Shown: positions 4,551 to 36,786 of the stretch, in pieces
Layout: each line of letters opens with the position of its first letter
Numbering within the stretch: position 1 is the stretch's first letter
IMG/VR virus record: IMGVR_UViG_3300028591_000072
Span: 1-64,000 of that record
Source: a virus
Lineage: Duplodnaviria; Caudoviricetes
Reading direction: 5' to 3' (one strand)
DNA length: 64,000 nt
The notes under the pieces: model-generated
Database searches by the model: none
Seen by the model: the letters and a program-made list of their open reading frames with translations, nothing else
Told to the model about the DNA's origin: nothing
Made by a program: the position numbers and the translations under genes

Positions 4551-4568
4551 TGGCACGATTTTTGTATA
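4551..4568 (+). promoter_or_regulatory. sigma54-like -24/-12 motif (representative + strand copy; others at 6109, 7141, 8244, 10143, 13401)
   Basis: TGGCACGATTTTTGTATA ~35 nt upstream of ATG. Confidence 0.7.
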
Positions 4569-4600
4569 TAGAGTAGTCGCTAACTTAAAATTACATCATT

Positions 4601-5098
4601 ATGGAAAATAAACCTTATGCACACCTTAAAAAAATCGCAACCATAAGTTTGGTGGTTTCAATCATTCTGTTCTGTTTTGGATTGTTTGTAATCCCATTTA
4701 TAGGCATTTTGGCATCATTCTGCTTGTTCCTTTATGTAAGTTGGATTAAGACGGACAATAGAACAAAAAACGAATATAGAAATTTCTGCCTCACGAAAGA
4801 CATTCAATTTGGCACACCAATTGAAATGGTAGAAGAAATTATGGATTCTTATTTTCTTTTATCGGTTAATAAAAGCAAATCAGCCCCAAAAGAAAAGATT
4901 TGCAAAACCTGTGGAGGAAAAGTAGTAGATGGAGAATTTCAATATTGCCACAATAAATATGATGACAGCAGTGATGTTACAAGACTGAATTATTACAGTA
5001 AATATGGTACTCAATCATTCATATTCAAGCATGGAAAACTTGACAACGTTGAAACTGACCTTTTACCGTTAAACCAATTTTTAATTTTAAACTTTTAA
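4601..5098 (+). CDS. membrane-anchored Zn-finger protein (paralog of 7740..8237)
   Basis: two N-terminal TM segments, CxxCGG...YC. Confidence 0.7.
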   Translation: MENKPYAHLKKIATISLVVSIILFCFGLFVIPFIGILASFCLFLYVSWIKTDNRTKNEYRNFCLTKDIQFGTPIEMVEEIMDSYFLLSVNKSKSAPKEKICKTCGGKVVDGEFQYCHNKYDDSSDVTRLNYYSKYGTQSFIFKHGKLDNVETDLLPLNQFLILNF

Positions 5099-5102
5099 CA
5101 AA

Positions 5103-5549
5103 ATGAAAATAATAAGTTGTGCATTAGTAATAATTGACAAATACAGAAACATACTTGGTTGCCACGGAACAGGAAAACCAAATGAAAACGGATATGATTT
5201 TCCTAAAGGTTGTGCTGAAGAAGGTGAAAACCATTTAGACGCAGCTCTTAGGGAACTTATGGAAGAAACTGGTATTATTCTTTCAAAAAGCGAACCAATT
5301 ATTGACGCAGGAATCCATTATCATAATAAAAGAAAAGATATTCATATCTTTATTTATAGAATTAAGCAATTTCCTGATGTTAAAACACTTAATTGTACAT
5401 CATATTTTATTGATAGAAATGGAAAAGAAACCCTTGAAATGGATTCTTTCAAAATAATATCCAAAAATGAAAGAAAAGAACTATTCTATCACGGATTACA
5501 AAATAAATTTGAATTAATTGATAAAATAAATGAATCTTCCAATATGTGA
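5103..5549 (+). CDS. Nudix hydrolase
   Basis: Nudix box PKGCAEEGENHLDAALRELMEETG. Confidence 0.9.
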   Translation: MKIISCALVIIDKYRNILGCHGTGKPNENGYDFPKGCAEEGENHLDAALRELMEETGIILSKSEPIIDAGIHYHNKRKDIHIFIYRIKQFPDVKTLNCTSYFIDRNGKETLEMDSFKIISKNERKELFYHGLQNKFELIDKINESSNM

Positions 5550-5940
5550 ATTTCATCAAGGAGATTGGCTAATACCTTACGATAGCGACACGCCAGACCA
5601 AATATATTCCGTATCTTTTCAGGAAGAAATGGCAGGAATTTGGCCGATAATCCAATTCCGACACAATAGAAATGCATGGATATATCCAAGTTTTTGCACT
5701 CGTATAGAACTTACCGAGGAATTCTTTGGACACAACGGCTTTGAATACTCTCCGTTCTCATCAGGAAGCTATGACTACAAAGACGAAGATGGAAATAAAT
5801 TATCATTCACTAAAATAAATGGAAACAATTATTGGAATTGTTATTTTAATGATTTGCTTATTCCAGGAAATATAGAATATGTGGATGATGTACAAAGAAT
5901 GTTTATAACTTTTAAAATTAAAAAAAATTTTGTATTATGA
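5530..5940 (+). CDS. hypothetical phage protein
   Basis: 136 aa; IELTEEF..NGF and I.YV.DVQ motifs. Confidence 0.7.
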   Translation: MNLPICEFHQGDWLIPYDSDTPDQIYSVSFQEEMAGIWPIIQFRHNRNAWIYPSFCTRIELTEEFFGHNGFEYSPFSSGSYDYKDEDGNKLSFTKINGNNYWNCYFNDLLIPGNIEYVDDVQRMFITFKIKKNFVL

Positions 5941-6156
5941 TTATACAAATTTTACAAGTAATTTTATTGATAGCACAAATAGTTTTATGTGCTATTGGAC
6001 TCATTGGAAAGGCTAATGAAACAATGTCTGAAGAAAAAGCTAACGTTTGTCTTTATTCTTCATACGGATGCTGTATTTTAATATTGTTACTTGGATTGCT
6101 ATAAAGTTTGGCACGGTTTTTGTATATAAACAACAGGAACATTAAAATTAACTATT

Positions 6157-6765
6157 ATGATTACACTTGAAAACATCAAACATCTTAACGACTTACACAA
6201 TCTACCAAAAGACATTCATGTAAATAAGAATGTACTGTTGGATTATAGATTAACTGATAGTCTTAAAGCAACAGATAAAAATCCAAGAAACCGTGAATAT
6301 GACTTTGATGTTTTTCTGCCAAAGTACGGAATTAACCTACAGCGCCCTTATATGTGGGAACATTACCAACAGAGTGAGTTTATTTTCTCTATTCTGTTCG
6401 AGAAGCCTCTTGAGCCTGTTGTAATCGTTCAACACACGTTTAACTACGATGCCAGAAGCGAAAGCATCAACTATGTGATTGATGGTAAACAACGTCTTAT
6501 GACTATTCAGAAATTCCTTAGAAATGAATTCTCAATCAATATCAATGGACAAGACTGCTATTTCAGGGATTTTGATGATAAATTGCAATGGTTCTTTGAA
6601 TCAAGGGCAAATAGTATGACCGCATTGATTTATTATTCATATCCTGACGTTCCTGTTACTGATGATATGAAGATTTACCTGTTTAATTTCTACAATTTCT
6701 CAGGTACACCACAAACCGAGGAACATAAAAACAGACTACAAGCATTATTAAAAAAAGAACATTAA
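6157..6765 (+). CDS. DUF262 / ParB-Srx-like (GmrSD N-terminal type) domain protein
   Basis: LQRPYMW...Q..FI.SIL and VIDGKQRL. Confidence 0.8.
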   Translation: MITLENIKHLNDLHNLPKDIHVNKNVLLDYRLTDSLKATDKNPRNREYDFDVFLPKYGINLQRPYMWEHYQQSEFIFSILFEKPLEPVVIVQHTFNYDARSESINYVIDGKQRLMTIQKFLRNEFSININGQDCYFRDFDDKLQWFFESRANSMTALIYYSYPDVPVTDDMKIYLFNFYNFSGTPQTEEHKNRLQALLKKEH

Positions 6766-6777
6766 AATATTATTATT

Positions 6778-7032
6778 ATGAAAATTGAAATTGAAATCGA
6801 AGACAAGTATTTGAACGCTGTTGCTGCACAAATGGTTTTGGTTGCAGACTCAGAATATGAGGAAATGATTGCTGAGCAAGCAAAGAAAAAATGTATGGAA
6901 GATACAATTATCCTAAGTCCTGACAGTTTGGGCGATGACGCAAAACAATTACAATTGGGACTTGCAATGATGGCTATGGGCCAAGTTGCTGATGAAATCG
7001 AATACAACAAAAGAATGAGATTCATTTGTTAA
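6778..7032 (+). CDS. hypothetical protein
   Basis: 84 aa ORF. Confidence 0.6.
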   Translation: MKIEIEIEDKYLNAVAAQMVLVADSEYEEMIAEQAKKKCMEDTIILSPDSLGDDAKQLQLGLAMMAMGQVADEIEYNKRMRFIC

Positions 7033-7354
7033 ATGCAAACATTCTGATGCTAAAGATTCCAATGGGAGTTTACATGTAAAACACAAAATATACAAAAATT
7101 TTAAAGAAGAAACATTGTCTTATATGTATGATTAAAACTTTGGCACGGTTTTTGATAAGTAAATAATGTAATTTAAAATTTAAAAAGAAATATGAGAACT
7201 GAAGTTATTTTAACAATTATTACTTGGATTTTCCTTATCCTTGGATGGGTGTTTTTTAAGTTAACAATCTTGGCAATTGTTTTCTTCTTTATATCTATGG
7301 CCCTTTCTGGAATTAATTTACATATTATGTGCAAAAAAGAAAAAAATAATAAAA

Positions 7355-7687
7355 ATGGAAAAGAAATTTAAAAAAGGCGATATTGTATGCGTTTATTACG
7401 CCCACGGTGATAAGAAAGAAATCCATGAAACAGAAGTAATAAGTTCTGGCACAAAGTATATAACCACAAAATACGAACAACGCAACAAATTTGATGCAGA
7501 AAGTTTATGCTCAGATTGGGGTGGCTATTCATTGTTCAAAGGAACTAAAGAAGAATGTGAAACGTATATTTCTAAATTTGAAGACGCAAAAACAAAGTGC
7601 TGTGAAATACGTAGTTATTTTGAAGGACGAATTGATGATTTTGAGTTAGTAAATAAAGTATATGATTTAGTGTTTAACAAAAATTAA
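7355..7687 (+). CDS. hypothetical protein (start moved to MEKKFKKGD)
   Basis: A-rich ATG context at 7355. Confidence 0.65.
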   Translation: MEKKFKKGDIVCVYYAHGDKKEIHETEVISSGTKYITTKYEQRNKFDAESLCSDWGGYSLFKGTKEECETYISKFEDAKTKCCEIRSYFEGRIDDFELVNKVYDLVFNKN

Positions 7688-7739
7688 TTATAAAATAAAA
7701 TTAAGAAAATTATTTTAGTATTGGTCATTTTAATTAGAA

Positions 7740-8237
7740 ATGAATTATATACAAATGAAAAATCATAAAAACTATTATAAAATAAGTGTTATTAGCGCAT
7801 TCTTAATGCTTCTTTCGACAATATTTGAAATATATTTTTTATCTTTAATATTGTTTATTGTTGCACTTTTCACATTTGTTTATGGAAAATGGGCAGAAGC
7901 AGACAATAAAACAATTACTGAATATAGTAATTTTACAAATGCCAATGAAGAACTTGGAATGTGCATGAAAGAAATAAAAGACATTAATTCCAAATACCTA
8001 CCAATAAAAACAATAAATACAGCAACAGTTAACTCTTCAACATGCCAATGCTGTGGAAGTATAATGGTTAACGGAAAATGCCTTTATTGTGGAAATGAAC
8101 AATTTAATGACACAAATAGTGTTGTACTAATGTACAAAACAAAATTCGGAGAAAAAACTTTTACTTTTAAAGATGATATCCTTATTAACAAAAAATCATC
8201 TTTTAAACCATTAAAAAATTTTTTGATTTTGCAATAA
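7740..8237 (+). CDS. membrane-anchored Zn-finger protein (paralog of 4601..5098)
   Basis: TM pair, CQCCGS..GKCLYCG. Confidence 0.7.
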   Translation: MNYIQMKNHKNYYKISVISAFLMLLSTIFEIYFLSLILFIVALFTFVYGKWAEADNKTITEYSNFTNANEELGMCMKEIKDINSKYLPIKTINTATVNSSTCQCCGSIMVNGKCLYCGNEQFNDTNSVVLMYKTKFGEKTFTFKDDILINKKSSFKPLKNFLILQ

Positions 8238-8297
8238 TACCTTTGGCACGATTGTTGTATAGGTATTATTTTAACATACGAAAAAAAATTTCAAATT

Positions 8298-10088
8298 ATG
8301 AATTACAAAAAGAAATACGAAGAAGTTATTAAAAAGGCAAAGGAATACAATAAAAGATGGCAATGTATTCAGGCAACAGATTCGGAACTTGCATTAAAAG
8401 AATTAAAAGAAATCTTCCCAGAACTCAAAGAGTCCGAGGATGAGAGGATAAGAAAGTACATAATATGGCATTTGAAACATACGAGAACTTATCTCGATAA
8501 TTCCATTAATAACCATGTGGAAGAAGCAATCGCCTGGCTTGAAAAGCAAGGTGAACAAAACAATCTTTTAAACTTCAATGAAGCGGAAATGGAGAAAACT
8601 GATTTTGTCAGCGGACAATTCATCGAATGCAGAAAATCATTTAATGAGTTTAAAGAAGAGAATTCATATTGGTTAGAGTACATCGGTGATGACACTTACA
8701 TTGGTAGAAGTAACAATGTTCTCAACAAAAAGTTTCACATTACACCAAGACAATTATTCACTCTTTTCACTCATGAACACTGTCCAAAAGAAAATAATGT
8801 AAATGAAGAAACAAATACTCCAACAAACTACGGTAAGTATGTTGATAAATGCCTTAATGATGCAGCAAAACATTTCTTTTCAGAAGGAGAAGATAAATAT
8901 AATGTTGCAGATTTATTTTATGCTGGTGTAAAATGTGGACAATCTTTGCTTGAAAAGCAAGGTGAACAGAAACCTGTTATTTATATTCCCAAATTCCGTG
9001 TAGGTGATAAGCTGGTTAGCACAACGAATCCAAGGCTTACCTATGAGGTTTTAGAAGTAGGGCTCATCAATGAACTTGGCAATCCAGAATATAAAGTAGA
9101 AGTATTTACTGACGGAAAAGTCAAAAATCCTAGCAACATTTATAATATGGAATACTATAAGGTAGATGAATGGGCTAAACTGATTGAGCAGAAATCTGCC
9201 AATAAGGTTAAGCCAAAGTTTAATGTTGGCGATTGGATTGTACAAGAAAATATTGGAGTCTATAAAGTTATCGAAGTATGTGAATCTTGGTATGAAGTTG
9301 TTGATAATACGGATAAACATTATTCAATCAGCTTTGATAAAGAATATATGTGTCATCTTTGGACTATCCAAGATGCAAATGATGGCGATATACTTTCTGA
9401 AAGTAAAAGGGAAGTAATTCTTATATTTAGAGGAATTGGTAATACAAGATGGGATGATGTTATAGATTTTCATTGTTATTATGATTGCTATTTGGAAGAC
9501 TTTGGCATCCAAAAATATTTAGATTACTGGGGCAACGCAAAGGACAATCAATTAAAACCAGCAACCAAAGAACAGCGTGACATCTTATTCCAAAAGATGC
9601 GTGAAGCAAGTTATGAATGGGATTCAAAAAAGAAAGAGTTGAAGAAAATTGAGCAGAAATCTTCTTGGAGTGAAAAGATTAAAGGTCTTAATGAACTTGA
9701 GACATATATTCTTTCATTAGTTCCTGATAGGTCATTAAATGCAATTAAAATTGATACTAAAAATATTAGATACATAATCAATAAAGAACAGAAGCCTGCT
9801 TGGAACGAAGAGGATGAAAAACTTTATACTTCTGCATTATGGCACATAAAGAACTCTTGTGGTAATGGAGGTAAGGACAGTGGAGAATATGAAATCTATA
9901 ATTGGCTAAAATCCATCAAAGATAGATTTCAGCCACAACCAAAGCAAGAATGGAGTAAAGAAGATAGCGAAAGACTTCTTAGAATCCATCAATTCATTTG
10001 GGCCAATAGAAAAGGCGATACCGATGAAATCTATCAGCAAGAACAAGATGCAGATTGGCTAATGTCAATAATCCCACAGCCAAATTAG
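8298..10088 (+). CDS. modular repeat protein (LEKQGEQ / KPKF.VGDW / WTIQDA.DGD modules)
   Basis: 596 aa; modules shared with 10426..12327. Confidence 0.8.
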   Translation: MNYKKKYEEVIKKAKEYNKRWQCIQATDSELALKELKEIFPELKESEDERIRKYIIWHLKHTRTYLDNSINNHVEEAIAWLEKQGEQNNLLNFNEAEMEKTDFVSGQFIECRKSFNEFKEENSYWLEYIGDDTYIGRSNNVLNKKFHITPRQLFTLFTHEHCPKENNVNEETNTPTNYGKYVDKCLNDAAKHFFSEGEDKYNVADLFYAGVKCGQSLLEKQGEQKPVIYIPKFRVGDKLVSTTNPRLTYEVLEVGLINELGNPEYKVEVFTDGKVKNPSNIYNMEYYKVDEWAKLIEQKSANKVKPKFNVGDWIVQENIGVYKVIEVCESWYEVVDNTDKHYSISFDKEYMCHLWTIQDANDGDILSESKREVILIFRGIGNTRWDDVIDFHCYYDCYLEDFGIQKYLDYWGNAKDNQLKPATKEQRDILFQKMREASYEWDSKKKELKKIEQKSSWSEKIKGLNELETYILSLVPDRSLNAIKIDTKNIRYIINKEQKPAWNEEDEKLYTSALWHIKNSCGNGGKDSGEYEIYNWLKSIKDRFQPQPKQEWSKEDSERLLRIHQFIWANRKGDTDEIYQQEQDADWLMSIIPQPN

Positions 10089-10191
10089 TATCCGCAAACT
10101 CTTTGTATGATGATTTAAAAAAAATCTAATTGATTAATAGTTTGGCATAGTTTTTGCTATGTAAACAATGTAAATTTAAATTTAAATCGTT

Positions 10192-10386
10192 ATGAGTTGT
10201 ATTGAAGATTATCCTGTCATTGAACAAGCAATTGAATTTGGCGTAAGCCAATGGGGAAAGAAAGAAGCAATGGCCATACAAATTGCATATTATTGGATAC
10301 TTGGATGGCTTGCTGCAAAAGAAAACATTTCCGATTATGATAGAAATATTATTGAACAAGGTGTAAAAAACTATTATTTTATTTAA
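10192..10386 (+). CDS. hypothetical protein
   Basis: follows TGGCATAG motif at 10143. Confidence 0.6.
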   Translation: MSCIEDYPVIEQAIEFGVSQWGKKEAMAIQIAYYWILGWLAAKENISDYDRNIIEQGVKNYYFI

Positions 10387-10425
10387 AAAATTCAAAATTA
10401 AAGAAATTGTAAAATATTATTAATT

Positions 10426-12432
10426 ATGGATTACGAAACGAAATACAAAGAGGCTCTTGAAAGAGCAGAACAACAACTCTACATTGCAGAGTGCAATAAA
10501 GACGAAGGTAAAGTTTGGTATCTGAAGTACATGTTCCCTGAACTCCGAGAGAGCAAAGATGAAAGGATAAGAAAAGAAATTATTGCATATCTTGATGTAC
10601 AAGATGCAATATCTAATAGAAAAGACCAAGACTTTAAAAGTTGGATTGCTTGGCTTGAAAAGCAATGCAATATAGGTGAAGAGTCTTATGAAATTGCTGA
10701 AAATGAAAAGCGTGAATTTGTTGGAGATGGTTTTATCAAATGTTATGCTGATTTTCAAGATTTCAAAGAAGGAGAAACTTATTGGCTTGAATATGTTGGC
10801 AAAGATAATTATAACGTTAGAAGTGATAATCTTCTTGGTAAAACGTACCATATAACTCCTTGCCAATTATATACAATATTCAAGAAACAAACTTGGCTCG
10901 AAAAACAAGGTGAGAAAGGAACTGACCCAAGATATGAGTATCTCGAAGAACTACTTGCAGCCGATGACATCTACCAAATGGCAGTGAATGATGATATGGT
11001 TCAAGAAGCAAAGACTAAAGTCATAAATGCATTATCTAAACTTGAAATCTGTAAATTGTTGGGCCTTGAAAAGCAAGGCGAGCAGAACTTTACAGATGAA
11101 GTAAAGCCAAAGTTTAAGATTGGTGACTGGATTGTTTACGAAGGTTCAGGAACATATAAGGTTGTTGAGATACACAAAGGATGGTATATTGTAATTGATA
11201 GCAATGACAAACGTTGGTCAGTAATGTTTGGAGGAGAAAGTTCATACCATATATGGACCATTAACGATGCAAAAGATGGCGATATTCTCACAGTTGTAAC
11301 TGATAAAAGACCAAGACCATTTATTTTCAAGGGATTGTTAGACAAATTTCACCCAGCAAGCCCAGTGGCGTATTGTGGAATTGATTGTGGAGAGCACTTC
11401 ATTGTTAGCCCAGAAGATAGATGGTGGACTTCTGAAAAAGTAGAACCTGCAATCAAAAAAATTAGCGATTCATTGTTCCGAAGAATCCATGAAGAAGGAT
11501 ACGAATGGGACGGTAAGAATAAAAAGTTGATTGAAATTGAAAAACAAAGTGAACAGAAATCCACTGATGAGGTTAAACCAAAGTTTAAGGTTGGTGATTG
11601 GTGCATAGATAATGAAGATGGCACTATATTTCAAATATTGAAAGTATTAGATAATACTTACACATATAAGACAAATGAAGGCAAAGAATATTCTTGCTCA
11701 CATTACTCATTGGAAAATGATGCAAAACTTTGGTCTATCGAAGACGCAAAGGATGGTGATGTGCTTTTTCATTCGGATTCTGCTTCCAATGGCATTTTCA
11801 TATTTAAGGAAATAATTGATAGAGGATATGCAAAGGAAATAATATGTTATTGTGATTATGATTCTGAAGACCATTTTTGTTTAGGTGAACATCATACTTG
11901 TTGCTGGGCAGATGCTAAAATTCTTCATCTAGCAACAAAAGAACAGCGTGACATCTTATTCCAAAAGATGAAAGAAGCAGGTTATGAATGGGATGAGAAG
12001 AAAAAAGAGTTGAAGAAGATTGAGCAGAAGCATACTGAGTGGAGTGAAGAGGATGAAAAATTTTTAAACTATGCTATTAGTTTGACAGACGATGCACAAA
12101 TAAAGAATTTTCTAAAATCTCTCAAAGATAGAGTTATTCCTACTGAAAAACAAGAGTGGAGTGAAGAAGAAATAGATTTACTATTGTCAAATTTAGACAG
12201 AAACATAAAAGAATTTGTTACAACTGATGAATTTGAAAATGAAATCGGAGGACGCTATTGGGCAATTGCCAAACATGCATTTTTACTTGGTCTTGGATAC
12301 AGCCGAAATTGGAAGCCAAGTGATTAACAAATGGAAGCATTAAGTTGTATAGCATATAACTATGCCTTAATGGATAGAGGAACTGACGAAAAATTACAAT
12401 CACTCTATCATGACCTAAAAAAACTTATTTGA
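10426..12432 (+). CDS. modular repeat protein with apparent premature TAA at 12325-12327
   Basis: 633 aa to TAA; frame continues QMEAL...LQSLYHDLKKLI to TGA at 12430-12432. Confidence 0.75.
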
Positions 12433-12458
12433 TTATGTATAGTAAAAACTAAATAGTT

Positions 12459-13370: not shown

Positions 13371-13638
13371 AAAAAGAATGGAACGTTTTACAAAAAAAAT
13401 TGGCATAGTTTTTGATAACGATAAAAGGTAATATTAATCTTCTAAAACAATGAATACAATTAGAATTACAGTAAAAACAATGATTGGAAATACCATAGAA
13501 AAAGATATTCCTCTCACAAACTCACTTAAAAAAGAACTTATCAATATCATCAAACCTATCGAATTAGATAAAAAAGGTAGAGTCACTGATATTATATTCG
13601 ATACATTATAAAATAATCATTAATTAAAATTTATTATT

Positions 13639-15655: not shown

Positions 15656-15711
15656 CACTACAATATAATACAAAAAGTGTGCCAAACTATACATTTGGAT
15701 AAGGAAATATG

Positions 15712-16664: not shown

Positions 16665-17552
16665 TTAATGTTCAACTCTTTGATACATATTTTTTATTTT
16701 TTCTTCAGCAGAAGACTTAAGTTGCCTAACTCGTTCAGAGGTTAGCCCAAGTACCTCTCCGATTTCATTGTTCTTGCACGGACTGTAGTCTCCCAAGCCA
16801 TATGCCATTTTTATTATTTTGGACTCTCTTTCAGGGAGTTTTTCAATAATGGCCTGTAGCGTGTGTTTGGTCCCGTCTCGCTCAACCTGTATAGCATAAT
16901 CGTTTTCTACAGAAGCATATTCTGTGAATTTCTTTGAATTCTCAAAGATGTACGTATCGTCATCAACGTTATCAGTCGGGTCTTCAATTCTTTCAATTTT
17001 AGCACCGAAAATATCATTCCTGTCTAAAAGTTTAACGCCATATTGTTCTTCCAGGATTTTTTCTACTTCAAAGATATCTGGTTTACAACCATGGACCCGC
17101 ATGTATTCATTTTCTATCTCCTTTACCTTCGGAGTTATTCTTGCATTATTTGATGGGCGAACCAGCAAGTTCTCGTCTTTCAGGAAATGGTTTATGGCCC
17201 TACGAATATAGTACTGTGCATATGTCATAAACTTATTGTCCCTTTTGATGTTAAAATTGTCAAATGTTTCATACAGCCCAAGTGTTCCTACACTGACCAG
17301 TTCCAACGCCATTTCGCTGTTATTGTTAGCGTAACAGTTTGCAATACTGTAAATCAGGCCCTGATTTGCAATAGCAATCTTTTTCCTGATTTCAATACGG
17401 TCCGCTTCAGTAGATTCATTTGAGTAATATTTCTCAAGAAGTTTTGTTTCCTCTTCCTTTGTCAATTTGGCGCAATTTTCTTTTTTTAAATCGTTGAAAT
17501 AAAAGTTAACAAGACTATTCTTGGATTGATTCTTAATTTTTCTAATTTTCAT
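16665..17552 (-). CDS. phage-encoded sigma70-family RNA polymerase sigma factor
   Basis: region 2 (ANQGLIYSIA..Y, G.LGL, KF.TYA.YYIRRAI) and region 4 (EIGEVLGLTSERVRQL). Confidence 0.9.
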   Translation of the reverse strand: MKIRKIKNQSKNSLVNFYFNDLKKENCAKLTKEEETKLLEKYYSNESTEADRIEIRKKIAIANQGLIYSIANCYANNNSEMALELVSVGTLGLYETFDNFNIKRDNKFMTYAQYYIRRAINHFLKDENLLVRPSNNARITPKVKEIENEYMRVHGCKPDIFEVEKILEEQYGVKLLDRNDIFGAKIERIEDPTDNVDDDTYIFENSKKFTEYASVENDYAIQVERDGTKHTLQAIIEKLPERESKIIKMAYGLGDYSPCKNNEIGEVLGLTSERVRQLKSSAEEKIKNMYQRVEH

Positions 17553-18076
17553 ATGCTAAATTTTATTGATTATTATCAAATATCATGCCAAAATTATAAT
17601 TTCAATTTATTTTTTTATTTGATATAAAAATATATAATTGACATTACAATATTCAACAAAAACCATGCCAAACTTTTCAAAAACATAAAAAAAAGCACGG
17701 AATTTTGTAACTCCGTGCAAACAAACACACATTATGTCCACGTATTTAAAATAACGACTTGCTCTGGTCAAGAGGCCCGTGGCGACCTATGGGATGTTAT
17801 CGGTTGATACACTCCACCACTGCCTTAATTTTTTTGAAATAGAGGGAAAGACAGAAGACCTCTATAATAGCAGAAAGCGAGAAATACCCATGTATCATTT
17901 TTGCGCTGTATACTTTCCAAGGTTTCACGCCCAAGTCTCTGCGCTTGGTAAAGGGCTTAATGGTTAAGCCAAAACTTATTTGGCATCACCTGTGCTGAGG
18001 CTTGGAGAGAGCACTTTCTACTACTTTTAATAATTGCATTATATATCGTAATAGTTGCTGTACGCTTTCTTTAAAG

Positions 18077-18589: not shown

Positions 18590-18895
18590 AATTTAGATTT
18601 CAATTATATATCAATAATAATCAATCATTTCAAATACTGTACGCAATTGCGTATATTATTGGTTGTGTCAACCATTTCAATATTGTGGCTTTGTATTCGG
18701 TCATCAATATAGATATATGAAACAACACAGAGCGCTAAAATTCCAATTAAAATTAGAATTGCAATACCTGTTGATAATCTACTTCTGTTTTGTTCCATAG
18801 TTTAATTTTGATTTAAATTATAATGAGCGAATCTCACGCTCTTGATGTTACCTGTTTGATAAGGAGTTTGCAGGGACATCTAAACGCTCTCCTTG

Positions 18896-19355: not shown

Positions 19356-19499
19356 ATTGTCGGTTTTAAGGAGACCGAAAACTCTCTGCTGTTTTATTGG
19401 CAATATTGTTTAACTTAATATACAAATTTTAATTTAAAAAACAAATTATAATTAGTATTTTTTTTTTAATTTTATACAATAGGTACGCATTTGCGTATA

Positions 19500-20644: not shown

Positions 20645-20705
20645 AGTTTATAGATTTCGTGTGTTTGTTAATTCAATTTTAATTATAATCAAAAAGTGTG
20701 CCAAA

Positions 20706-21038: not shown

Positions 21039-21350
21039 ATATTTATTTATTGTGATTTTCTAATGGTACGCATTTGCGTATATTATTAGTAAGAATATTC
21101 TCCAAGATGGTTCTTTTGCTTGCATTCGTCATAGAATGCTTGATAGGCTGTTTTATTTGTATAGAATCCATGTTCTTCATTGTCACGGAAATTATCATCG
21201 TCAAGTCTATCCCATGCAAGGCTGTTGTTACTGTGGCATGTGTATTATTTTCCACGATAGGTGATTTTTACCTCGTATGAGCAATAACCTTTTGAGCGGA
21301 TTACTCTCACTCTGTTTTTCAAGTCTTTCAGTGTCATAGTAATTTTAATT

Positions 21351-21921: not shown

Positions 21922-21939
21922 TATGCAACAATCGTGCCA
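21922..21939 (-). promoter_or_regulatory. sigma54-like -24/-12 motif, perfect consensus (representative of ~40 - strand copies, 15.7-36.7 kb)
   Basis: TGGCACGATTGTTGCATA = GG-N10-GC. Confidence 0.75.
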
Positions 21940-22372: not shown

Positions 22373-22660
22373 AGTGTGTTTGTTCAATTATGCATTTAAA
22401 TTATAGACAAGAATTGTGCCATTTTCAACTTTCAAATTGAATTTCTTCAATTTTTTTTCCAACATTTTCAATCATAAATTCAAATTCTTCACTTGATACT
22501 GAAGGACTCATCATCTCTTCAAATGTTGCATTTTCAAGTTCTAAATATCTATCTTTTGTCATTTTAATTTTAATTTAATTGTTCACTACAATATAGAGCA
22601 ACAATCGTGCCAAAGTAATAAAAAATAAAAGTTAATTTTTTTTATAATAAAAAAAATAAA

Positions 22661-22765: not shown

Positions 22766-22855
22766 GCCACAATATAAAACAATAATTGTGCCAAAGTACA
22801 AAAAAGGCGGCACAAAATTGCACCGCCAAAGGAAAATTTTTAGTGAGGCATTTCT

Positions 22856-23239: not shown

Positions 23240-23653
23240 TTTTTTTAATTTTAATTGGTTATACATTTATGCTATTACAATAATTGTGCCAAAGGTACAA
23301 AACTGCGTATATTATTCGTAATTTTGTGGAGAAATTTTATTCTTCTTACGATTGTATGCTTTTTTGGATTTATGCACCCTGCTTGGGCGCAAACTCACAA
23401 TCTTTCCGTGAGTTTTAATTTCCATCTCTCGGTCAATTTGGCAAGCAACCTTAATTGAATTATATTTCTTTTTAGTTTTCATTTGATATGATTGTCAATT
23501 ACGGCTTGCGCCCCTTCCAATGTTTTTCTTTCGTAATCTTCAATGTTGCCATACCTATCCATAACATAGGCAATATAAGAATTCTCGTTGAATTTGTGGA
23601 TTTGGTTTCCACGATAAATAATTACTTCGGGCATGGTATTTAATTTTAATTGG

Positions 23654-24368: not shown

Positions 24369-24711
24369 ATTAAATATATTATAATTTTCTATTTGGGGGA
24401 TGCTCTTGCCATACTTGGACTTAGTTGACGAGGGTTTGTAACGGTTATCCGACCTTTATCCTATTAACCTCTACTTTCAATTGGGATTTTTATCACTATA
24501 AAATAATCACATAAAATATTCGGTAAAAATAATAATCTTTATTTTACGGCTGACCTCTAATGTTTTTCATATTTCCTAATTCTTATATATTAAACACCGA
24601 TTATCAAATTTATCAAATTATTATAATTGTTTGTTAGGGCTTATCTCTTGTTCTCATACTACTTATTCTTTAAATGTTCGTACTTATTACTTTACAAATA
24701 TCGTTCCAAAC

Positions 24712-25289: not shown

Positions 25290-25347
25290 AATATTTAAAA
25301 TTTTATTGGTTAATGTCAGTATTATTACTTACAAATATCGTGCCAAA

Positions 25348-25737: not shown

Positions 25738-26424
25738 AATGTGTGTGCTTTAATTGGTTAGACATTTTACTTATAGCAACAATCGTGCCAAAAATCAACC
25801 TTCGTAATAGAATTTTTTTTATTCCATAGTTTGTGCGTTTTAATGTTCAATTCAATTATAATCAAAAATCGTACCAATCTTCACCATTTATGGCAATTTT
25901 TACGAAATTTCAATGATTTAATTTGAATTTGACAATCTTTCGCAGTGAAACGAAGTCCACTTCAACATATCGTATTTGCTATTGGTTGTGTACTTCATCT
26001 CGTTGACACATTCTGCAACAAGTGTTGGAATTGTACCTTCAAGTCCGTTTGCGCTTAATTGTTCAAGAACATCAAGCATTGCTTCTTTGTAATCCATAAT
26101 GATAATTTTAATTGGTTATGTACTACAATAATATACAATAATCGTGCCAAACCCTACAGCAAGGGTGTGCAATTTAATGAAAGGAGTAAAGATTATTGCA
26201 CACCCAACCGCTAACGATATGAATAACTATGAATAATACTCAACACATTGTTTCGTTGATAAGCCTTTCAAGATGGTTTTCGTTTTCTGCAACCGCCAAC
26301 TTTTCAAGAAATTCATTGGCATAAGTTGACCCATCGGAAAGGACATCGGGAATGTATGGATTAATTAATCCGTGTTCGGCAAGTTTCTTTGCCTTTTCAA
26401 TGATTTCTGCTTTCTTCATTTGGT

Positions 26425-30076: not shown

Positions 30077-30131
30077 GATTATTTTTTTTAATGGTTATAC
30101 ATTTTAATATCTTACAATAATTGTTCCAAAA

Positions 30132-30596: not shown

Positions 30597-30644
30597 ATCT
30601 TTTTGTCTTAATTGTTCACTACAATATATGCAAATATCGTGCCA

Positions 30645-30878
30645 TTATGACAATAGCACGACATTTTTTAGTTCTTCTTTTTCGTAGTTTTCAATGTGGT
30701 CTTCATCCACAACCTTGTTCTTGCGGTGATATTCGCTCCAAGTGACATCGGCAATTTCAATGTTGTTAACTTCGCTTGCGCAGGTAGTTCCCCAATAATC
30801 GTGTGAGGGTTGGGCAATGCAAACTTCTGCTTCGCCATTTTCCATTTGCAATTGAGCAATCAATTCGTTTACTTTCAT
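30645..30878 (-). CDS. hypothetical early protein
   Basis: MKV.ELI..L N-terminus; motif at 30928. Confidence 0.65.
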   Translation of the reverse strand: MKVNELIAQLQMENGEAEVCIAQPSHDYWGTTCASEVNNIEIADVTWSEYHRKNKVVDEDHIENYEKEELKNVVLLS

Positions 30879-31156
30879 TGCTTATTGTTTTTAATTGGTT
30901 AGACATTTATTTACCTTACAATAATTGTGCCAAAATTACTTTTTATTGGGGCATTCTTTCACTTTTTTCAATTCGTTTCCACAATTCCAACAAACATAAT
31001 CATTCATGGAAACAATTCCGTGAATATAACTTATATAATTGATGTGCATCTTTCCAAGAAACATACAACCTTTTGATATGCACTCCGCCCTTGTCATAGT
31101 ATCATTAAATTGTTTTAATTACACTACAATATAACACAAATATCGTGCCATTTCAA

Positions 31157-31375
31157 TCAATCAAACTTATTTATCAATTTTCTTTTGAAATCATCGTAAG
31201 CGGTATAATATACCTCTTCGCTGCAACCTACTTCATTAAGTATTGAAGCAAATTTCCACAAAAGTTCTTGTTCGTGCCTCTTAATTTCCTCATCCTTTTG
31301 GGCAAGCGCCTTCATCACCGCCTCATAAGTTTCTTTTTTGTTTGAAACAACCTTTGCAATATCTTCGTTCTTCAT
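31157..31375 (-). CDS. hypothetical early protein
   Basis: motif at 31419. Confidence 0.6.
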   Translation of the reverse strand: MKNEDIAKVVSNKKETYEAVMKALAQKDEEIKRHEQELLWKFASILNEVGCSEEVYYTAYDDFKRKLINKFD

Positions 31376-31584
31376 ATTATTATAATTTTAATTACACTTC
31401 AATAATAAACAAATATCGTGCCAAACTAAACAAAAAGCGGCACAAAATTGCACCGCTTTTCTCCACTAAAAAACAAAAGACTATGAAAAACTCTACAAAT
31501 GTTCCGTTAGACCGTTCTTTGACTTCATTCTGTTATCGGTTTATGTACGCAACTGCGTATATTATTACAATAATCGTGCCAAAA

Positions 31585-31899
31585 TCACTTTTTCTCAAAC
31601 TTGACTCCGTTTCTTTTTTGAATGACTTTCACTTTGAAAAAATCAAGGACTGCAAATGGCACTTTGTACACTCGGATGCAATAATGCTTGTTCTTGCGAT
31701 GCTTTCCTCTCTTGTACACTTGAACAGTGTAAAACCAAGCGCAATTGTCTCTTAATGGAAACCTTGTTTGATATGCGCCATAGGTTCCATAACTATTTGC
31801 ACAAGGTGATAGTTGGAATGCGTGGTAAAGGTGATACATTGCATCCTTTTTAGTTCCCTTGCCTTCAAGAATACTATATGGTTTAAGTGTGAATTTCAT
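31585..31899 (-). CDS. hypothetical basic protein
   Basis: motif at 31944. Confidence 0.6.
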   Translation of the reverse strand: MKFTLKPYSILEGKGTKKDAMYHLYHAFQLSPCANSYGTYGAYQTRFPLRDNCAWFYTVQVYKRGKHRKNKHYCIRVYKVPFAVLDFFKVKVIQKRNGVKFEKK

Positions 31900-31951
31900 T
31901 GCTTATTATTTTACTTGTTCAATTTAATTATAATCAAATATCATGCCAAAC

Positions 31952-32377
31952 TTATTCGTTTGCGTTGATTTGTTCGGACAAACTTTCAATTGCAGTCCAA
32001 ACATTTTCCTCACCGCCAACAACCTCCATAAACTTCTCATACTCCCTACGGCAACTATTTTCAACTTGTTTCAGCAAAGATGATTCATCGTAGCATCCAC
32101 GAATTTCATCGTTAAGGTACATTGAAATATCGCCCAAAATGCAATCCAATGCGCCACGAAGTGCTTCCTCGTCCAACTTCTTCACGTTATGTGAAAAGTT
32201 CCAAGCAGAATCGTGGAAAGTTGTAGTCATTTTTCCGTGTTCGCTCCAAATCTTCAAATTAAACATATAGTGGGGCAAATTAAATTGTTTGATGCCCTTG
32301 CTTTCGCCCTTCATAGTTGCAGAAACATTGATAGTTCCGATGCCTTCAACTTCAAATTTAATAGTGGTATTTCTCAT
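31952..32377 (-). CDS. hypothetical early protein
   Basis: motif at 32423. Confidence 0.7.
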   Translation of the reverse strand: MRNTTIKFEVEGIGTINVSATMKGESKGIKQFNLPHYMFNLKIWSEHGKMTTTFHDSAWNFSHNVKKLDEEALRGALDCILGDISMYLNDEIRGCYDESSLLKQVENSCRREYEKFMEVVGGEENVWTAIESLSEQINANE

Positions 32378-32657
32378 TGCTTTGTGTTTTTATTGTTACA
32401 CTTGAATTATAATCAAATTCTATGCCAAACTATTAAAATTCTCCGACAAAATTATGATTCAAATCATAAACAAAAGTATGGGCAAAGCCATTTATTTTCT
32501 TCCAAAGTTCTGCGTTTTCTTTCAAATACTTCGCATTGTCAATGCTGCAAATTTGCGCACCCCCGAAACTACCCTTCACAGGTGTAAAGTAATAATATTC
32601 TTTCATTGCTTTTCGTTTTAGTGTTACACTATAATAGTAAGCAACAATCGTGCCAAA

Positions 32658-32873
32658 CTAATTAAAATGAATTAGAATATCATTAATTTTTGCACCAAAA
32701 ATTTCAATTTGCTCAGTAAGATACTCCCAAGAAAACAAATCATCGTCACCGAATCCGTATTTGTCACGGATATAATCCTCCTCATCGCCTTTGTATTTGG
32801 CTTCAATTTCGTTTTCATCGGCATTCTCAATGAATAACTGATGCTCTTTGTGGTCAATGATTGCAAGTAACAT
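32658..32873 (-). CDS. hypothetical early protein
   Basis: motif at 32920. Confidence 0.6.
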   Translation of the reverse strand: MLLAIIDHKEHQLFIENADENEIEAKYKGDEEDYIRDKYGFGDDDLFSWEYLTEQIEIFGAKINDILIHFN

Positions 32874-32928
32874 AATAATTTGAATTAAAGTTATACACTA
32901 CAATAATAGGCAAAAAGTGTGCCAAAAA

Positions 32929-33339
32929 TTACAATTTGGACACAATTTTTTCAATGAAAACCCAATCAATAGGTGTTTTATTTGTGTAAGCATACCCATT
33001 ACAATATGTTTTCTTTTCAAACTCAATGATTTTGCCCTTTGTATTATTAAGTTTCTCTTGTAGTAAAGATTTCCATTTCTTTACATCTTTGCCTTGCAGA
33101 TATTCAAGTACAACATTACCCGAAGCCGTCCAATCGTAGTAACTCGGATTCCACGGTTTTCCACAAAGTTCACTTGAATTTATGACAAAAATGTTTTTTG
33201 ATGCCCTCCTAATGTTATGCGGATTTTCTTTTGAAACTTCATTGATGGCTTCGGTTATTGCCAAAACTAATTTAGCCTCCAACTCCTTCAATTCGTTGGC
33301 AATATCGTCAAACCTTTTCAATATGTTTTTTACTTCCAT
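32929..33339 (-). CDS. hypothetical protein
   Basis: 136 aa. Confidence 0.65.
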   Translation of the reverse strand: MEVKNILKRFDDIANELKELEAKLVLAITEAINEVSKENPHNIRRASKNIFVINSSELCGKPWNPSYYDWTASGNVVLEYLQGKDVKKWKSLLQEKLNNTKGKIIEFEKKTYCNGYAYTNKTPIDWVFIEKIVSKL

Positions 33340-33351
33340 AATGATTTTAAT

Positions 33352-33657
33352 TTAATATCCAAAGGCTTTCAACATAGCACCAAAACTATCAAATTCTATA
33401 CCAAACTCATCGTGGGCTTGGTTGCTTCCGCAAGAGCATTTTACAACTTCTTCACCGCTTCCACACTCGCAGAGGTCAATTCCCCAATGATTAACGCAGT
33501 GGTTGCAGCAATAAGTTTTAGTAAGTCTTTTATATTTGCGCAGGTCAAGACCTATTTTCTTTGCAGTCTTTGGGTACATACTATTCGATGCACCATTATC
33601 AAAGTTAATTGTAATTGCTCCGCAAGCACACTTAAAATACGATTCAATGTTTGCCAT
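33352..33657 (-). CDS. Cys-rich hypothetical protein
   Basis: CACG, CCNHCVNHWGIDLCECG. Confidence 0.7.
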   Translation of the reverse strand: MANIESYFKCACGAITINFDNGASNSMYPKTAKKIGLDLRKYKRLTKTYCCNHCVNHWGIDLCECGSGEEVVKCSCGSNQAHDEFGIEFDSFGAMLKAFGY

Positions 33658-33791
33658 AGTTCTTTGCGTTTTAATTGTTCACTACAATATAAAGCAATAA
33701 TCGTGCCAAAATTCATGAAAAAAGAAAATCGTGAAAACTTTTTTTGTTCCCACGAAATTCAAATGTTCACTTTATTGTTTTGAAAGCCCTA

Positions 33792-34379
33792 TCAATGTAA
33801 TCCTATTGCCTTTTCCCAATCATAGGAATCAATTTGGGAAGGTCTGAAAAAGCCGTTCAAGCCCTTCAGTGCCTCGCCAAGTTTTTTCACTGCATTTTCA
33901 ACTTGCTCCTTATAGCGGTCATAGTTTTCGATGGCATCTTCCCACTTGCCAATTTGCTCGTTGCAAAGTTTTATTTGCTCGTTGCACTCATTTTCGGCAC
34001 CTTCGGCAACAATGCGCCCTTCCTCGTTGACAAATGCCTTCTTGCAGTTGTGGATGCTTGTGTGATAGATTTCCTTGTCGAAATATATCGTGCTTCCGTT
34101 GATTTGCGTGTCACGATTGAAAAGGTAAATCTTCAAAGTCTTATAACCCATATTGTAAGGGTCAGAGATGCCAATGTTAGCACCGATTTTGCACTCTTTC
34201 AAGCGGTTTTCAATCTCTGTTTGGAAACGCTTGTTGAAAACCTTGCCTTCCATTTTCTTTGCGCTTTCGGCAATGATTTGGAAAACGGCAATGATAGTTT
34301 TATATCCACCAATGATGGCGTTTCCGTACTTTACGAAATCTTCTTTCTTGCTGAATCTATTTGCAGTTGTGTTTAGCAT
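33792..34379 (-). CDS. hypothetical early protein
   Basis: GKVFNKRF; motif at 34425. Confidence 0.7.
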   Translation of the reverse strand: MLNTTANRFSKKEDFVKYGNAIIGGYKTIIAVFQIIAESAKKMEGKVFNKRFQTEIENRLKECKIGANIGISDPYNMGYKTLKIYLFNRDTQINGSTIYFDKEIYHTSIHNCKKAFVNEEGRIVAEGAENECNEQIKLCNEQIGKWEDAIENYDRYKEQVENAVKKLGEALKGLNGFFRPSQIDSYDWEKAIGLH

Positions 34380-34628
34380 AATTTTAATTTTTAATTGTTT
34401 GTACTTATTACCTTACAAATATCGTGCCAAACTATTCCTTCCACCATTCGGCAATCCAACTTCTTTTTGCACAAATTGGATATGTTTCCATTGCTTACTT
34501 TAAGGTTTTGCAGTGTGTATTGAATGAATAAAAACTACCTTTTAATCTAATGTGTACTTCCATAGTGTTTTTGTATTTGATTGTCCACTACAATTATATG
34601 CAAATTGTATGCCAAACTTGTTTTGAAA

Positions 34629-35018
34629 TCAAACAAATTTAGTAACCCATCCATTTTTATCCTTATAATAGTAATAGCCATCCCGAGACAAACAAGTTTT
34701 GTTTTTATTATACAAGTTGTTTTTTTTCAAAAACTCAACAAACCTATTATGGTATTCCTTAAATTTATTGTAATTAAGTTCAAGAATTGTATAGGCTTGC
34801 GTCCAACGATGTGACCTAACAATGTCATTCTGCAACCTTACAAAGTGTTCAAAAATCTCCGTAAGTTTTTCTCTATCCGCAAGTTTATCATCGTATTCCG
34901 CTATCTCAATCTCTGAAAGTTGCTCTACAACCGAAAGCCTAAATCTCCAATTCATTACTTTAATCATTGATTTTGCAGCATCGAATTGTTCAAGGTGTAT
35001 TTTTTGTAGTTCTGCCAT
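34629..35018 (-). CDS. hypothetical early protein
   Basis: 129 aa. Confidence 0.6.
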   Translation of the reverse strand: MAELQKIHLEQFDAAKSMIKVMNWRFRLSVVEQLSEIEIAEYDDKLADREKLTEIFEHFVRLQNDIVRSHRWTQAYTILELNYNKFKEYHNRFVEFLKKNNLYNKNKTCLSRDGYYYYKDKNGWVTKFV

Positions 35019-35145
35019 TATATAAAGTATTTAAATCATACACCACAATAATACACAAAAACCATACCAAAAATAACGCATTTGCGTATATTAAATAAAA
35101 AAAGCGGGATTTTTTGTCCCGCTTTTATTTTGCTGAGTTGTGAAC

Positions 35146-35739
35146 TTATCTTTCAGCCCATTGAAGATTATCAACTCTATTGTTGTGGTAGTCACCATCA
35201 ATGTGGATAATCATATAGACCTTTGGGTCTTTCGCTTCAAGGAAGGCATCGGCAACCATATACTTTACATCTGGACAAGTGTTGAGGGTCTTTCCGTTTA
35301 CCTTTGCATTCAAGTGGAATTGCATTGCGTTTCTCGTTGGGGCATCGTATCCCTCGCTGATACTGCAATTCATAGCATTGTTGACATCAATGGTTTTTAA
35401 CCTGCCAAAATTGCTGACTTCATAGAAACAGCCATAGTCAACTTCTCCGTCAAAATACCTTCCAACATTTTGGACAGGCTTCCATTCTTCACCTTCGCAC
35501 TTTGCCACCATTTCGGCAACTTTCTTGTTATTGGGAAGGACAATACTATTAAAGTAGTCCTGCACACCCATATTTGCAGGTTTGGAAAAAACGACCTTTT
35601 TCTTTGGCTGAAAAATAATCTTATTCCCAAACTCGACAAAATCGGTTACGCTTACACCAAACTTTGAGGCAACCATCTTTGCGGTTTGCCTCGCACTGAA
35701 TCCCGAAGGAATACAGAATGAATCGTTCTTCTTAATCAT
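35146..35739 (-). CDS. NUMOD4 / HNH endonuclease-like protein
   Basis: EEWKPV..YEVSNFGRL; HIDGD..NNRVDNLQW. Confidence 0.75.
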   Translation of the reverse strand: MIKKNDSFCIPSGFSARQTAKMVASKFGVSVTDFVEFGNKIIFQPKKKVVFSKPANMGVQDYFNSIVLPNNKKVAEMVAKCEGEEWKPVQNVGRYFDGEVDYGCFYEVSNFGRLKTIDVNNAMNCSISEGYDAPTRNAMQFHLNAKVNGKTLNTCPDVKYMVADAFLEAKDPKVYMIIHIDGDYHNNRVDNLQWAER

Positions 35740-36066
35740 TGCTTTGTAATTTAGGGTTAAACATTTAATGAACTACTTTCATATATGCAAATACTATGCC
35801 GAAATTTGAATTTTTTCAAATTATTTCCAAATCAACACCACAAGGAGATACATTTATAATGTAATTTAATGCTTCTTCATGTGTTTCAAACTCGGTTTTT
35901 ACATCGGCATCTTCCCATTTTACGAAGTCACCATCTTCATTTTTGTAGGCTATTGTGTACATTATATTTTGTGTTTTAAAATTACACTTCAATATATGCA
36001 AAAAACGTGCCGTTTTTTTCAAAAAAACACAAAAAAGGCGACATTTTTTTGCCGCCATTTTGATAA

Positions 36067-36516
36067 CTATTCTGACAATTTTCGTTGCAGGTCGCTTATA
36101 CGCTTGTAAAAACCTGCTGTGTGCATTGATTGTATTTTTAAATAGCAAGTGTCATAGTGGTGCATAAATTCATGCAACAATGTTTCTGAAAACACTTTTA
36201 TTGATATTGTTTGTTTGCGTATTGCAGTTGTGTTATAGATTGTAATTGTATTTAAAATAGGTTTGTAAAAACCAAAAGTTTTTGATTTTAATTTACCACT
36301 ATATCCCGTTGAATGAGGTTGTGGTGTGTTTGTAACAAGCACCGACACACTTGGAATGTGGAATTTGCCACAAAGGTAGTTTACCAATGCTTGCGCCAAT
36401 TTTTGCCTATTCCCATCCTGCAAAAGTTTTTGATATTCGGTTTTGCTAAACCTATTCAATGCAATCGTTTCAATTTTGTTTGACTTTTCGTAATCTTTTT
36501 CATTCGTGTTTTTCAT
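36067..36516 (-). CDS. small zincin-like metalloprotease
   Basis: TLLHEFMHH...H..GFY. Confidence 0.7.
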   Translation of the reverse strand: MKNTNEKDYEKSNKIETIALNRFSKTEYQKLLQDGNRQKLAQALVNYLCGKFHIPSVSVLVTNTPQPHSTGYSGKLKSKTFGFYKPILNTITIYNTTAIRKQTISIKVFSETLLHEFMHHYDTCYLKIQSMHTAGFYKRISDLQRKLSE

Positions 36517-36786
36517 GCCAATTGTATTTTAGTGTTACATTACAATGATAAACAAAAACCTTGCCAAAATTATAATTTGTAGAAAAATATTGACACTTTT
36601 TTAGTAAAAAAATCGTTTGGAAAATGCACAAAAACCAAACGAATATTTATAAAACCAAACTATTCGGACGAATAGCAATGCATTTTTTTAAAAAAGCAAA
36701 AACAAAATGATTATGTAATTACAATAACATACAATTCTAATGCCAAAATTGATTGATTTGAATTTTTACAACACAAAAAATGAGAA

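Follow-up and report, generated by a model that had tools for sequence, protein, structure and literature searches.

Tandem sigma-54-type boxes in a jumbo phage genome: a probable early programme on a host transcription route

The linear virus record IMGVR_UViG_3300028591_000072 (302,581 bp, rated 82% complete) is that of a jumbo phage with a G+C content of about 32%, and its first 64 kb, referred to here as the window, contain long series of boxes with the two-block form of sigma-54 promoters, placed before about 50 small, putatively early genes. We estimate a probability of roughly 0.68 that these boxes are promoters read by the host sigma-54 (RpoN) holoenzyme, and that they would serve an early or accessory programme of the phage in a Bacteroidota-like host. 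To judge from its sequence, the motif, including the A/T/C position that follows it, looks like the sigma-54 promoters of the Bacteroidota proteostasis regulon. Since neither a sigma-54 nor an activator is detectable in the phage itself, its early programme is probably placed on the host route that Bacteroidota use for their chaperone genes. On this reading the boxes are a known kind of promoter in a new and surprising role.

Motif, spacing and placement of the boxes

Read with its flanks at every coordinate listed in an earlier note on this DNA, the motif is aNTTTGGCAC(G/A)(A/G)TTnTTG[A/C/T]. Among the 57 copies aligned, the T that opens the core is present in 95%, while the GGCA that follows and the final TTG are present in 100%. 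The gap positions between GGCA and TTG are C/T, G/A and A/G followed by a T-run, and the base after TTG is A in 21 copies, T in 21, C in 15 (26%) and G in none. About 14 positions agree with the sigma-54 consensus at exactly the -24/-12 spacing, and the motif fits TGGCACG-N4-TTG. The spacing is rigid, as TGGCAY-N5-TTG occurs 43 times between 1 and 38 kb and the same blocks separated by N4 or N6 do not occur at all. With up to two mismatches, TGGCAC-N5-TTGC is matched 95 times in the window; shuffled sequences gave 39.6 +/- 6, and none of 100 shuffles reached 95.

The earlier note had counted about 45-50 such motifs and suggested a genome-wide scan. All 45 listed sites (6 on the plus and 39 on the minus strand) are present, and about five more were found at 24708, 25876, 30128, 27535 and 35069, all on the minus strand and each with one core substitution; a further site at 4810 on the plus strand falls within an open reading frame (ORF) and is doubtful. 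The minus-strand sites of the note are numbered by where TGCCA lies; 4 nt has to be added to obtain the coordinate used here, that of the motif's first T. When the whole 302-kb genome was scanned on both strands with a position weight matrix (PWM), 63 sites scored at least 14 bits, whereas a Markov-shuffled genome gave 2 per strand. The sites are clustered at 4.5-13.4 kb on the plus strand and 15.7-36.7 kb on the minus strand, with smaller groups at 260-277 kb (plus) and 295-298 kb (minus).

The strong sites lie between genes and are directed towards the gene that follows, which bears out the co-orientation described in the note. The short distance to the ATG that it had also described was recovered: 36 of the 49 window sites are followed, 33-48 nt past the invariant G (mode 34-38), by an ATG that starts an ORF of at least 25 aa, while the same test at random positions gave a mean of 6.2 and a maximum of 14 over 200 trials. 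Seven sites lie immediately past a G+C hairpin and T-run on the same strand, which is a terminator-then-promoter layout.

This layout bears on the very improbable alternative that the boxes are not productive promoters but decoys, which sequester host sigma-54 holoenzyme and thereby silence the stress response of the host. With about 60 strong sites on each genome copy, a replicating phage would have more sites than the host; the phage also encodes no activator, and in some unrelated viral contigs the boxes stand in both orientations. However, the strong sites all share the orientation of a gene or RNA and keep a fixed distance to it, many of them past terminators, and titration alone would not require such a layout.

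The boxes of the window are listed below, with scores in bits and ATG distances in nt past the invariant G.

4551..4565, plus strand, sigma-54-type box TGGCAC-N5-TTGn, 27.9 bits, ATG +36
6109..6123, plus, box, 28.1 bits, ATG +34, GmrSD_N-like gene
7141..7155, plus, box, 27.7 bits, ATG +37
8244..8258, plus, box, 25.1 bits, ATG +40, 596-aa ORF
10143..10157, plus, box, 24.7 bits, ATG +35
13401..13415, plus, box, 20.4 bits, ATG +35
15670..15684, minus, box then long conserved leader, usual distance without ORF, 25.2 bits
17576..17590, minus, box heading the sigma gene, 24.2 bits, ATG +24
17656..17670, minus, second box upstream of the sigma gene, just past terminator 17718-17695
20689..20703, minus, box, 24.0 bits, ATG +45
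21925..21939, minus, perfect TGGCAC-N5-TTGC box
22407..22421, minus, box, 17.7 bits
22598..22612, minus, perfect box
22779..22793, minus, box directly past terminator 22827-22806
23277..23291, minus, box, 23.3 bits
23951..23965, minus, CGGCAC-variant box, 15.6 bits
24002..24016, minus, box, 17.5 bits
24276..24290, minus, box just downstream of tRNA-Lys, 26.8 bits
24694..24708, minus, TGGAAC-variant box, absent from the earlier list, 19.2 bits
25059..25073, minus, perfect box
25331..25345, minus, box, 24.1 bits
25776..25790, minus, perfect box
25862..25876, minus, TGGTAC-variant box, absent from the earlier list, 17.7 bits
26135..26149, minus, box, 25.1 bits
26810..26824, minus, box, 25.7 bits
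27481..27495, minus, box, 22.4 bits
27764..27778, minus, box, 23.8 bits
28376..28390, minus, box, 24.0 bits
28654..28668, minus, box, 25.0 bits
28883..28897, minus, box, 24.3 bits
29699..29713, minus, box past terminator 29756-29728
30114..30128, minus, TGGAAC-variant box, absent from the earlier list, 16.7 bits
30630..30644, minus, perfect box
30918..30932, minus, box, 24.5 bits
31136..31150, minus, box, 19.2 bits
31409..31423, minus, box past terminator 31461-31432
31567..31581, minus, box, 26.2 bits
31934..31948, minus, box, 24.8 bits
32413..32427, minus, box, 19.6 bits
32641..32655, minus, perfect box
32910..32924, minus, perfect box
33694..33708, minus, perfect box past terminator 33755-33729
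34415..34429, minus, box, 27.1 bits
34600..34614, minus, box, 18.9 bits
35055..35069, minus, TGGTAT-variant box, absent from the earlier list, 14.8 bits, past terminator 35126-35100
35787..35801, minus, CGGCAT-variant box, 17.1 bits
35998..36012, minus, CGGCAC-variant box past terminator 36056-36037
36552..36566, minus, TGGCAA-variant box, 20.1 bits
36731..36745, minus, weakest box of the earlier list, opening the minus-strand block, 14.2 bits
48556..48570, minus, possible outlying TGACAC-variant box within a CRISPR-Cas gene block, 20.2 bits, ATG +53, uncertain

The genes behind the boxes are mostly ORFans with a median length of 99 aa; they include the GmrSD_N-like gene, a weakly SAM-lyase-like gene, an HNH gene and a 295-aa sigma-70-family factor. 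Outside the window, in a tRNA island, a tRNA-Met at genome position 264914 begins exactly 14 nt past the G of the box at 264887 (box and tRNA in genome 264887-264985, L136 4888-4986). Since the motif heads RNA genes as well as protein genes, the signal would act on transcription and not on translation. The 5' end of this tRNA coincides with the predicted sigma-54 start, which would give a tRNA without a 5' leader to process.

The factor that would read the boxes

Two rigid blocks 11 bp apart are a hallmark of sigma-54, and the spacing of the blocks is the invariant one of TGGCAC-N5-TTGC promoters, while the C expected at -12 is present in only 15 of the 57 copies. Readings by host sigmaA or sigma-70 were rejected on positional conservation. 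Promoters of sigma-70 type have hexamers 16-18 bp apart and a conserved A at -11. With TTGGCA in the role of the -35 hexamer, only 15 of the 57 copies would have this A, and the invariant TTG would be placed in the spacer. For the Bacteroidota sigmaA elements (-33 TTTG and -7 TAnnTTTG), the T of the TA is T in 2 of the 57 copies. Of the 347 phage genes, 41 have the sigmaA box TAnnTTTG upstream in sense and 34 in antisense orientation, so that it is not enriched. Middle promoters of T4 type combine an activator box at -30 with a conserved -10 element 11-13 bp past it and work through sigma appropriation by MotA/AsiA-like proteins; in the phage, no -10-like element is conserved after the box.

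The genome was searched for transcription proteins of its own. No match to the DNA-binding and core-binding domains of sigma-54 (PF04552 and PF04963) was found in the phage, while both families gave a signal in the Bacteroides thetaiotaomicron control. Searches for a phage RNA polymerase, either multisubunit or T7-type, were negative with PF00623, PF00562 and PF00940, the last being a weak test as its control was silent. The earlier note had proposed looking for rpoN or an activator of GAFTGA type, but neither could be detected in the phage: a six-frame regular-expression search together with PF00158 revealed no bacterial enhancer-binding protein (bEBP). The sole GSFTGA in the six frames is in the C-terminus of a Laminin_G_3 lectin-fold protein. 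The PF00158 matches were weak and comprised an intein-split ClpC-like Hsp100 and another AAA protein, and since neither has GAFTGA, they were rejected as phage bEBPs. What the phage does encode is two sigma-70-family factors.

Window 16665-17552, minus strand, 295-aa sigma-70-family gene with Sigma70_r2 and r4 (phrog_351), behind two boxes
Genome 246802-247518, second sigma-70-family gene, 238 aa

Since the 295-aa sigma gene is itself behind the motif, its product cannot start the programme and a pre-existing host factor would be needed. With no phage polymerase, no sigma-54 of its own and no enrichment of the sigmaA box, the motif is the only promoter class left for such a factor. The earlier note had left open whether the early programme was built on host or phage sigma-54; host sigma-54 is the best inference from the sequence, and the phage version fails for want of a detectable gene.

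The motif is also conserved in relatives. The pattern TTGGCAY-N5-TTG was counted in five related jumbo-phage records, with the reversed pattern as the control.

G001, 148 kb, 61 copies, reversed control 1
G002, 219 kb, 24 copies, reversed control 2
G003, 208 kb, 33 copies, reversed control 1
G004, 363 kb, rated 100% complete, 26 copies, reversed control 3
G005, 217 kb, 45% G+C, 58 copies, reversed control 3

The distance from box to ATG is unchanged in G001, G004 and G005, and a 148-kb IMG/VR contig with a 58%-identical sigma has the same boxes and leaders. Homologues of the 295-aa sigma are present in all five (E <= 0.001), four of them near full-length with 32-58% identity; the match in G003 is weak and partial (32% over residues 5-130, E 2.5e-9) and more like the second, 238-aa sigma. 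No sigma-54 domain was found in the five relatives with PF04552, the only family searched there. Dense arrays of the canonical TGGCAY-N5-TTGC were furthermore found by a pattern scan of viral contigs in unrelated contigs of 40-50% G+C. L069 (IMGVR_UViG_3300049489_000321) has 21 boxes in 6.5 kb with C at -12 in 21/21, and C is present at this position in 12/12 boxes of L068 and 10/12 of L017. These three arrays have boxes in both orientations, some overlapping or paired, unlike the one-box-per-gene layout of the phage. The occurrence of canonical arrays in unrelated contigs is better explained by a shared host factor than by a private or lineage-specific phage factor.

It is nevertheless conceivable, if unlikely, that the likeness to sigma-54 promoters is convergent and that the boxes are read by another factor, either a phage sigma-70-family protein or a virion-delivered activator acting with host sigmaA in a geometry like that of a T4 MotA box plus a -10 element. 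The two phage sigma genes, with homologues in all five motif-bearing relatives, would suit such a factor, as would the lack of a conserved C at -12 and the 18% of the genome that is missing from the record. So would a TATAWT found 1-3 nt past the TTG and followed by GTAGTG at about a quarter of the sites, but its distance varies and many sites are without it. Moreover, two invariant blocks kept rigidly 11 bp apart are at odds with every known sigma-70-family promoter, A at -11 is found in only 15 of the 57 copies, and the 295-aa sigma lies behind the motif that it would have to recognise first. The canonical motif also fills unrelated viral contigs and matches mapped host sigma-54 promoters, which are considered next.

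The -12 base and the activator

Sigma-54 is the one bacterial sigma factor that is unable to open DNA without an ATP-driven activator, and the base at -12 is of interest in this respect. With classical sigma-54 promoters such as glnAp2, pspA and nifH, the phage boxes have in common the GG at -25/-24, the TTG at -15 to -13, the exact spacing and the G/A after TGGCAC. They differ in that C at -12 is present in 96% of known sigma-54 promoters, according to Barrios et al. 1999 as cited in PMC4551910, and in that an upstream enhancer and a cognate AAA+ activator belong to the classical promoters, whereas the search of the phage revealed neither. At sigma-54 promoters, transcription starts about 12-14 nt past the G at -13. 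The earlier note was correct that many copies have a non-consensus base at -12, and it took this as a sign of relaxed activator dependence. This second step did not hold, because mapped chaperone promoters of Bacteroidota have the same mix (PMC9723704).

In Flavobacterium psychrophilum, which has one rpoN, the mapping of 5' ends has shown that a sigma-54 promoter class, SM4, drives groES-groEL, lon, dnaK, grpE-dnaJ, htpG, clpB and skp (Guerin et al. 2021, PMC9723704). Within this class, mutagenesis has confirmed the remF promoter, and the basal expression of the chaperone cluster is high (PMC9723704). Ten SM4 promoters were read from Table S2 of that paper, from -50 to +10 around each start. 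Among these ten, the -12 base is A in groS, clpB, skp and lon, T in htpG, remF and two others, and C in two, and the start lies 14-15 nt past the G equivalent to that of the TTG (14 nt in groS, clpB and skp), just as the phage tRNA-Met begins at 14 nt. When the phage PWM was applied to the F. psychrophilum promoters, it gave 22.1 bits for skp, 22.0 for htpG, 18.1 for remF, 14.5 for lon and 11.6 for groS. The SM4 and phage promoters thus have in common the TTGGCAY-N5-TTG core followed by A, T or C but never G, the A+T-rich downstream DNA, which is very A+T-rich 3' of the phage boxes, and short leaders without a Shine-Dalgarno sequence. They differ in their deployment, since the cellular promoters, about 25-80 in number, lie scattered over the chromosome and serve stress and gliding genes, whereas the phage has about 60 tandem copies, much nearer to one consensus, before ORFans, its sigma gene and genes for tRNAs or small RNAs. 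Across Bacteroidota, predicted sigma-54 promoters are enriched at chaperone gene families (PMC12316311).

These findings also bear on the doubtful alternative that host E-sigma54 (the sigma-54 holoenzyme) binds the boxes but that opening proceeds without a classical host bEBP, either because the promoters fire activator-free or because an injected or early phage protein of unknown family remodels the complex. The 74% of sites without C at -12 would lack the 'lock' that this base provides, the DNA between -11 and +1 is A+T-rich, and non-consensus bases at -12 have been linked to activator-independent transcription (PMC4551910). That neither a shared upstream enhancer nor a phage bEBP was found also speaks for it. 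However, even bypass alleles of sigma-54 give only weak and rare bypass transcription in vivo (PMC4551910). Furthermore, the mapped F. psychrophilum promoters have the same A/T/C mix, so that a phage-specific bypass cannot be deduced from the lack of C at -12. Within the one clade, the position ranges from the canonical TTGC to TTGH: it is T 23, A 12 and C 7 in G001, C in 14/22 sites of G004 and C in 39/44 of G005, which retains the same layout. That a clade of rumen jumbo phages starts on host sigma-54 without a classical activator, through loss of the -12 lock or through a virion-delivered protein of unknown family that replaces the AAA+ activator, would be a long shot. If it were true, this activator-free clade would be the first case of natural activator-independent or non-AAA+-activated sigma-54 transcription at scale.

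Several points weigh against reading the boxes as host sigma-54 promoters. Sigma-54 needs an enhancer-binding ATPase, yet neither a phage activator nor a shared element within 160 nt was found at 53 sites; k-mer enrichment from -160 to -4 revealed only A/T runs derived from terminators. C at -12 is far rarer than in known promoters (26% against 96%). With 82% of the genome in the record, a phage factor could be encoded in the remainder. Finally, the label 'early' is drawn from gene content only. For the activator itself, we rank first a host protein that acts in solution or from sites that are not conserved, self-opening promoters second and a phage protein of unknown family third.

The earlier note knew of no sigma-54 programme in a lytic phage. 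As far as a whole early programme is concerned this stands, as no description of one was found in the searchable literature, but it is too broad for single promoters. The Pseudomonas phage YuA, also lytic, has a promoter attributed to host sigma-54 (Ceyssens et al. 2008, via PMC10914365), although as described in PMC10914365 it is a single sigma-54-like promoter beside sigma-70-type and phage-specific ones and not an early-region regulon. A weak HHpred hint of a sigma-54-like protein has been given for a Pectobacterium phage (PMC7693777).

The proposed programme, its leaders and other features of the genome

We propose that after injection host E-sigma54 would bind each TTTGGCAC-N5-TTG box and that a host enhancer-binding ATPase would open the complex, the likeliest candidate being the driver of the Bacteroidota chaperone and protein-quality-control regulon with its high basal activity. 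Transcription would start about 14 nt past the invariant G, and the resulting A-rich leaders would be short, about 20-25 nt, and lack a Shine-Dalgarno sequence. The units would mostly consist of one or a few small genes, several of them parted by intrinsic terminators. The phage sigma-70-family factor made from one of these units, together with the second phage sigma, would then move core polymerase to later promoters, for example CTATTTAT before the structural genes.

In the sigma cascade of SPO1 and the early, middle and late classes of T4, there are many small early genes, each with a strong promoter read by the host. The phage would resemble these in that a sigma gene among its early genes would hand transcription over to later classes. 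It would differ in its starting point, since SPO1 and T4 start on the host housekeeping sigma, whereas here the housekeeping box is not enriched and the starter would be sigma-54. Upstream of genes, CTATTTAT is enriched (52 genes with a sense hit against 11 antisense), largely at structural genes, and is found in sense orientation 20-40 nt before 37 starts. TTTGTATA precedes 26 genes against 9. Both are probably later promoter classes served by the two phage sigmas. A TTTGTATAT class is a further candidate for these later stages.

Translation signals agree with a Bacteroidota-like host. Shine-Dalgarno-like sequences are depleted, being present at 13 of the 347 genes where 28 would be found at random, and the phage translation starts have A at -3 and at -12 to -14. 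The absence of a Shine-Dalgarno sequence together with A at these positions is the pattern reported for Bacteroidota.

Because of its activator requirement, sigma-54 is thought of as a tightly gated, low-traffic route, and here about 60 phage promoters, including that of the phage's own sigma factor, would be placed on it. This would imply either that the Bacteroidota sigma-54/chaperone-regulon pathway is a strong, always-available channel on which viruses can rely, or that the phage can circumvent the need for an activator. In both cases something new would be learnt about transcription in a phylum that dominates the gut and rumen. Since the same design is found in related and unrelated uncultured phages, it is not the curiosity of one genome. 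The boxes would supply ready-made strong promoters for Bacteroidota genetics, and host proteotoxic-stress signalling would become a likely determinant of the success of infection.

Some elements recur beside the boxes. Between the predicted start and the ATG, a leader element (T)AACCAATTAAAA is found at about 20 boxes (e.g. 23965, 25073, 25790, 26149 and 27778) and also in the relatives G001 and G005; AATTAAA is present in 21 of 53 leaders. In a host that does not use Shine-Dalgarno pairing, the element may serve as a signal for translation or stability. After three boxes, at window 15684 (minus), window 22793 (minus) and L014 12034 (plus), there is a conserved leader of about 50 nt (…TATTGTAGTGTTATGAATAAG.CACC…), and at the two window boxes the first ATG is 62-63 nt past the G, against 34-38 elsewhere. 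Rfam shows no match here; the stretch may be a small RNA or a regulatory leader. A palindrome of 16-18 bp, (T)GTACGCAnnTGCGTAC(A), recurs beside several boxes in the phage and a relative and may represent an operator, a hairpin in the RNA or a site of processing. Its positions are as follows.

18638-18655, palindrome
19483-19498, palindrome
21066-21081, palindrome
Upstream of box 27495, palindrome
Downstream of box 31581, palindrome
L014, near 935, palindrome

For the record as a whole, a megablast search of 10 kb against the phage collection gave no match, and Rfam found only tRNAs in the window. A search for type IX secretion system sorting domains, made for host assignment, was negative, and no DnaK, GroEL or DnaJ, sought as a bridge to host loci, was found to be encoded by the phage. 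A TnpB search of genome contigs returned only two contigs of Spirochaetales metagenome-assembled genomes, with 35-56% identity. The gene for the ClpC/Hsp100-like chaperone (genome 66449-70681; L011, L012) is interrupted by an intein-like insert. The homologue searches with it returned metagenome proteins only, mostly of related phages. Over 100 of these are close (65-96% identity), and the metagenome contigs that encode them reach 384 kb in length, which suggests that the related jumbo phages form a large clade. The UvrD-type helicase at window 58622-61114 (minus) likewise has an intein or Hint insertion at about residues 245-545. Within an island of 26 tRNA genes, ARAGORN predicted a tmRNA-like gene with the tag GNENYAYAYAAA (L136 8972-9286, genome ~268971-269285).

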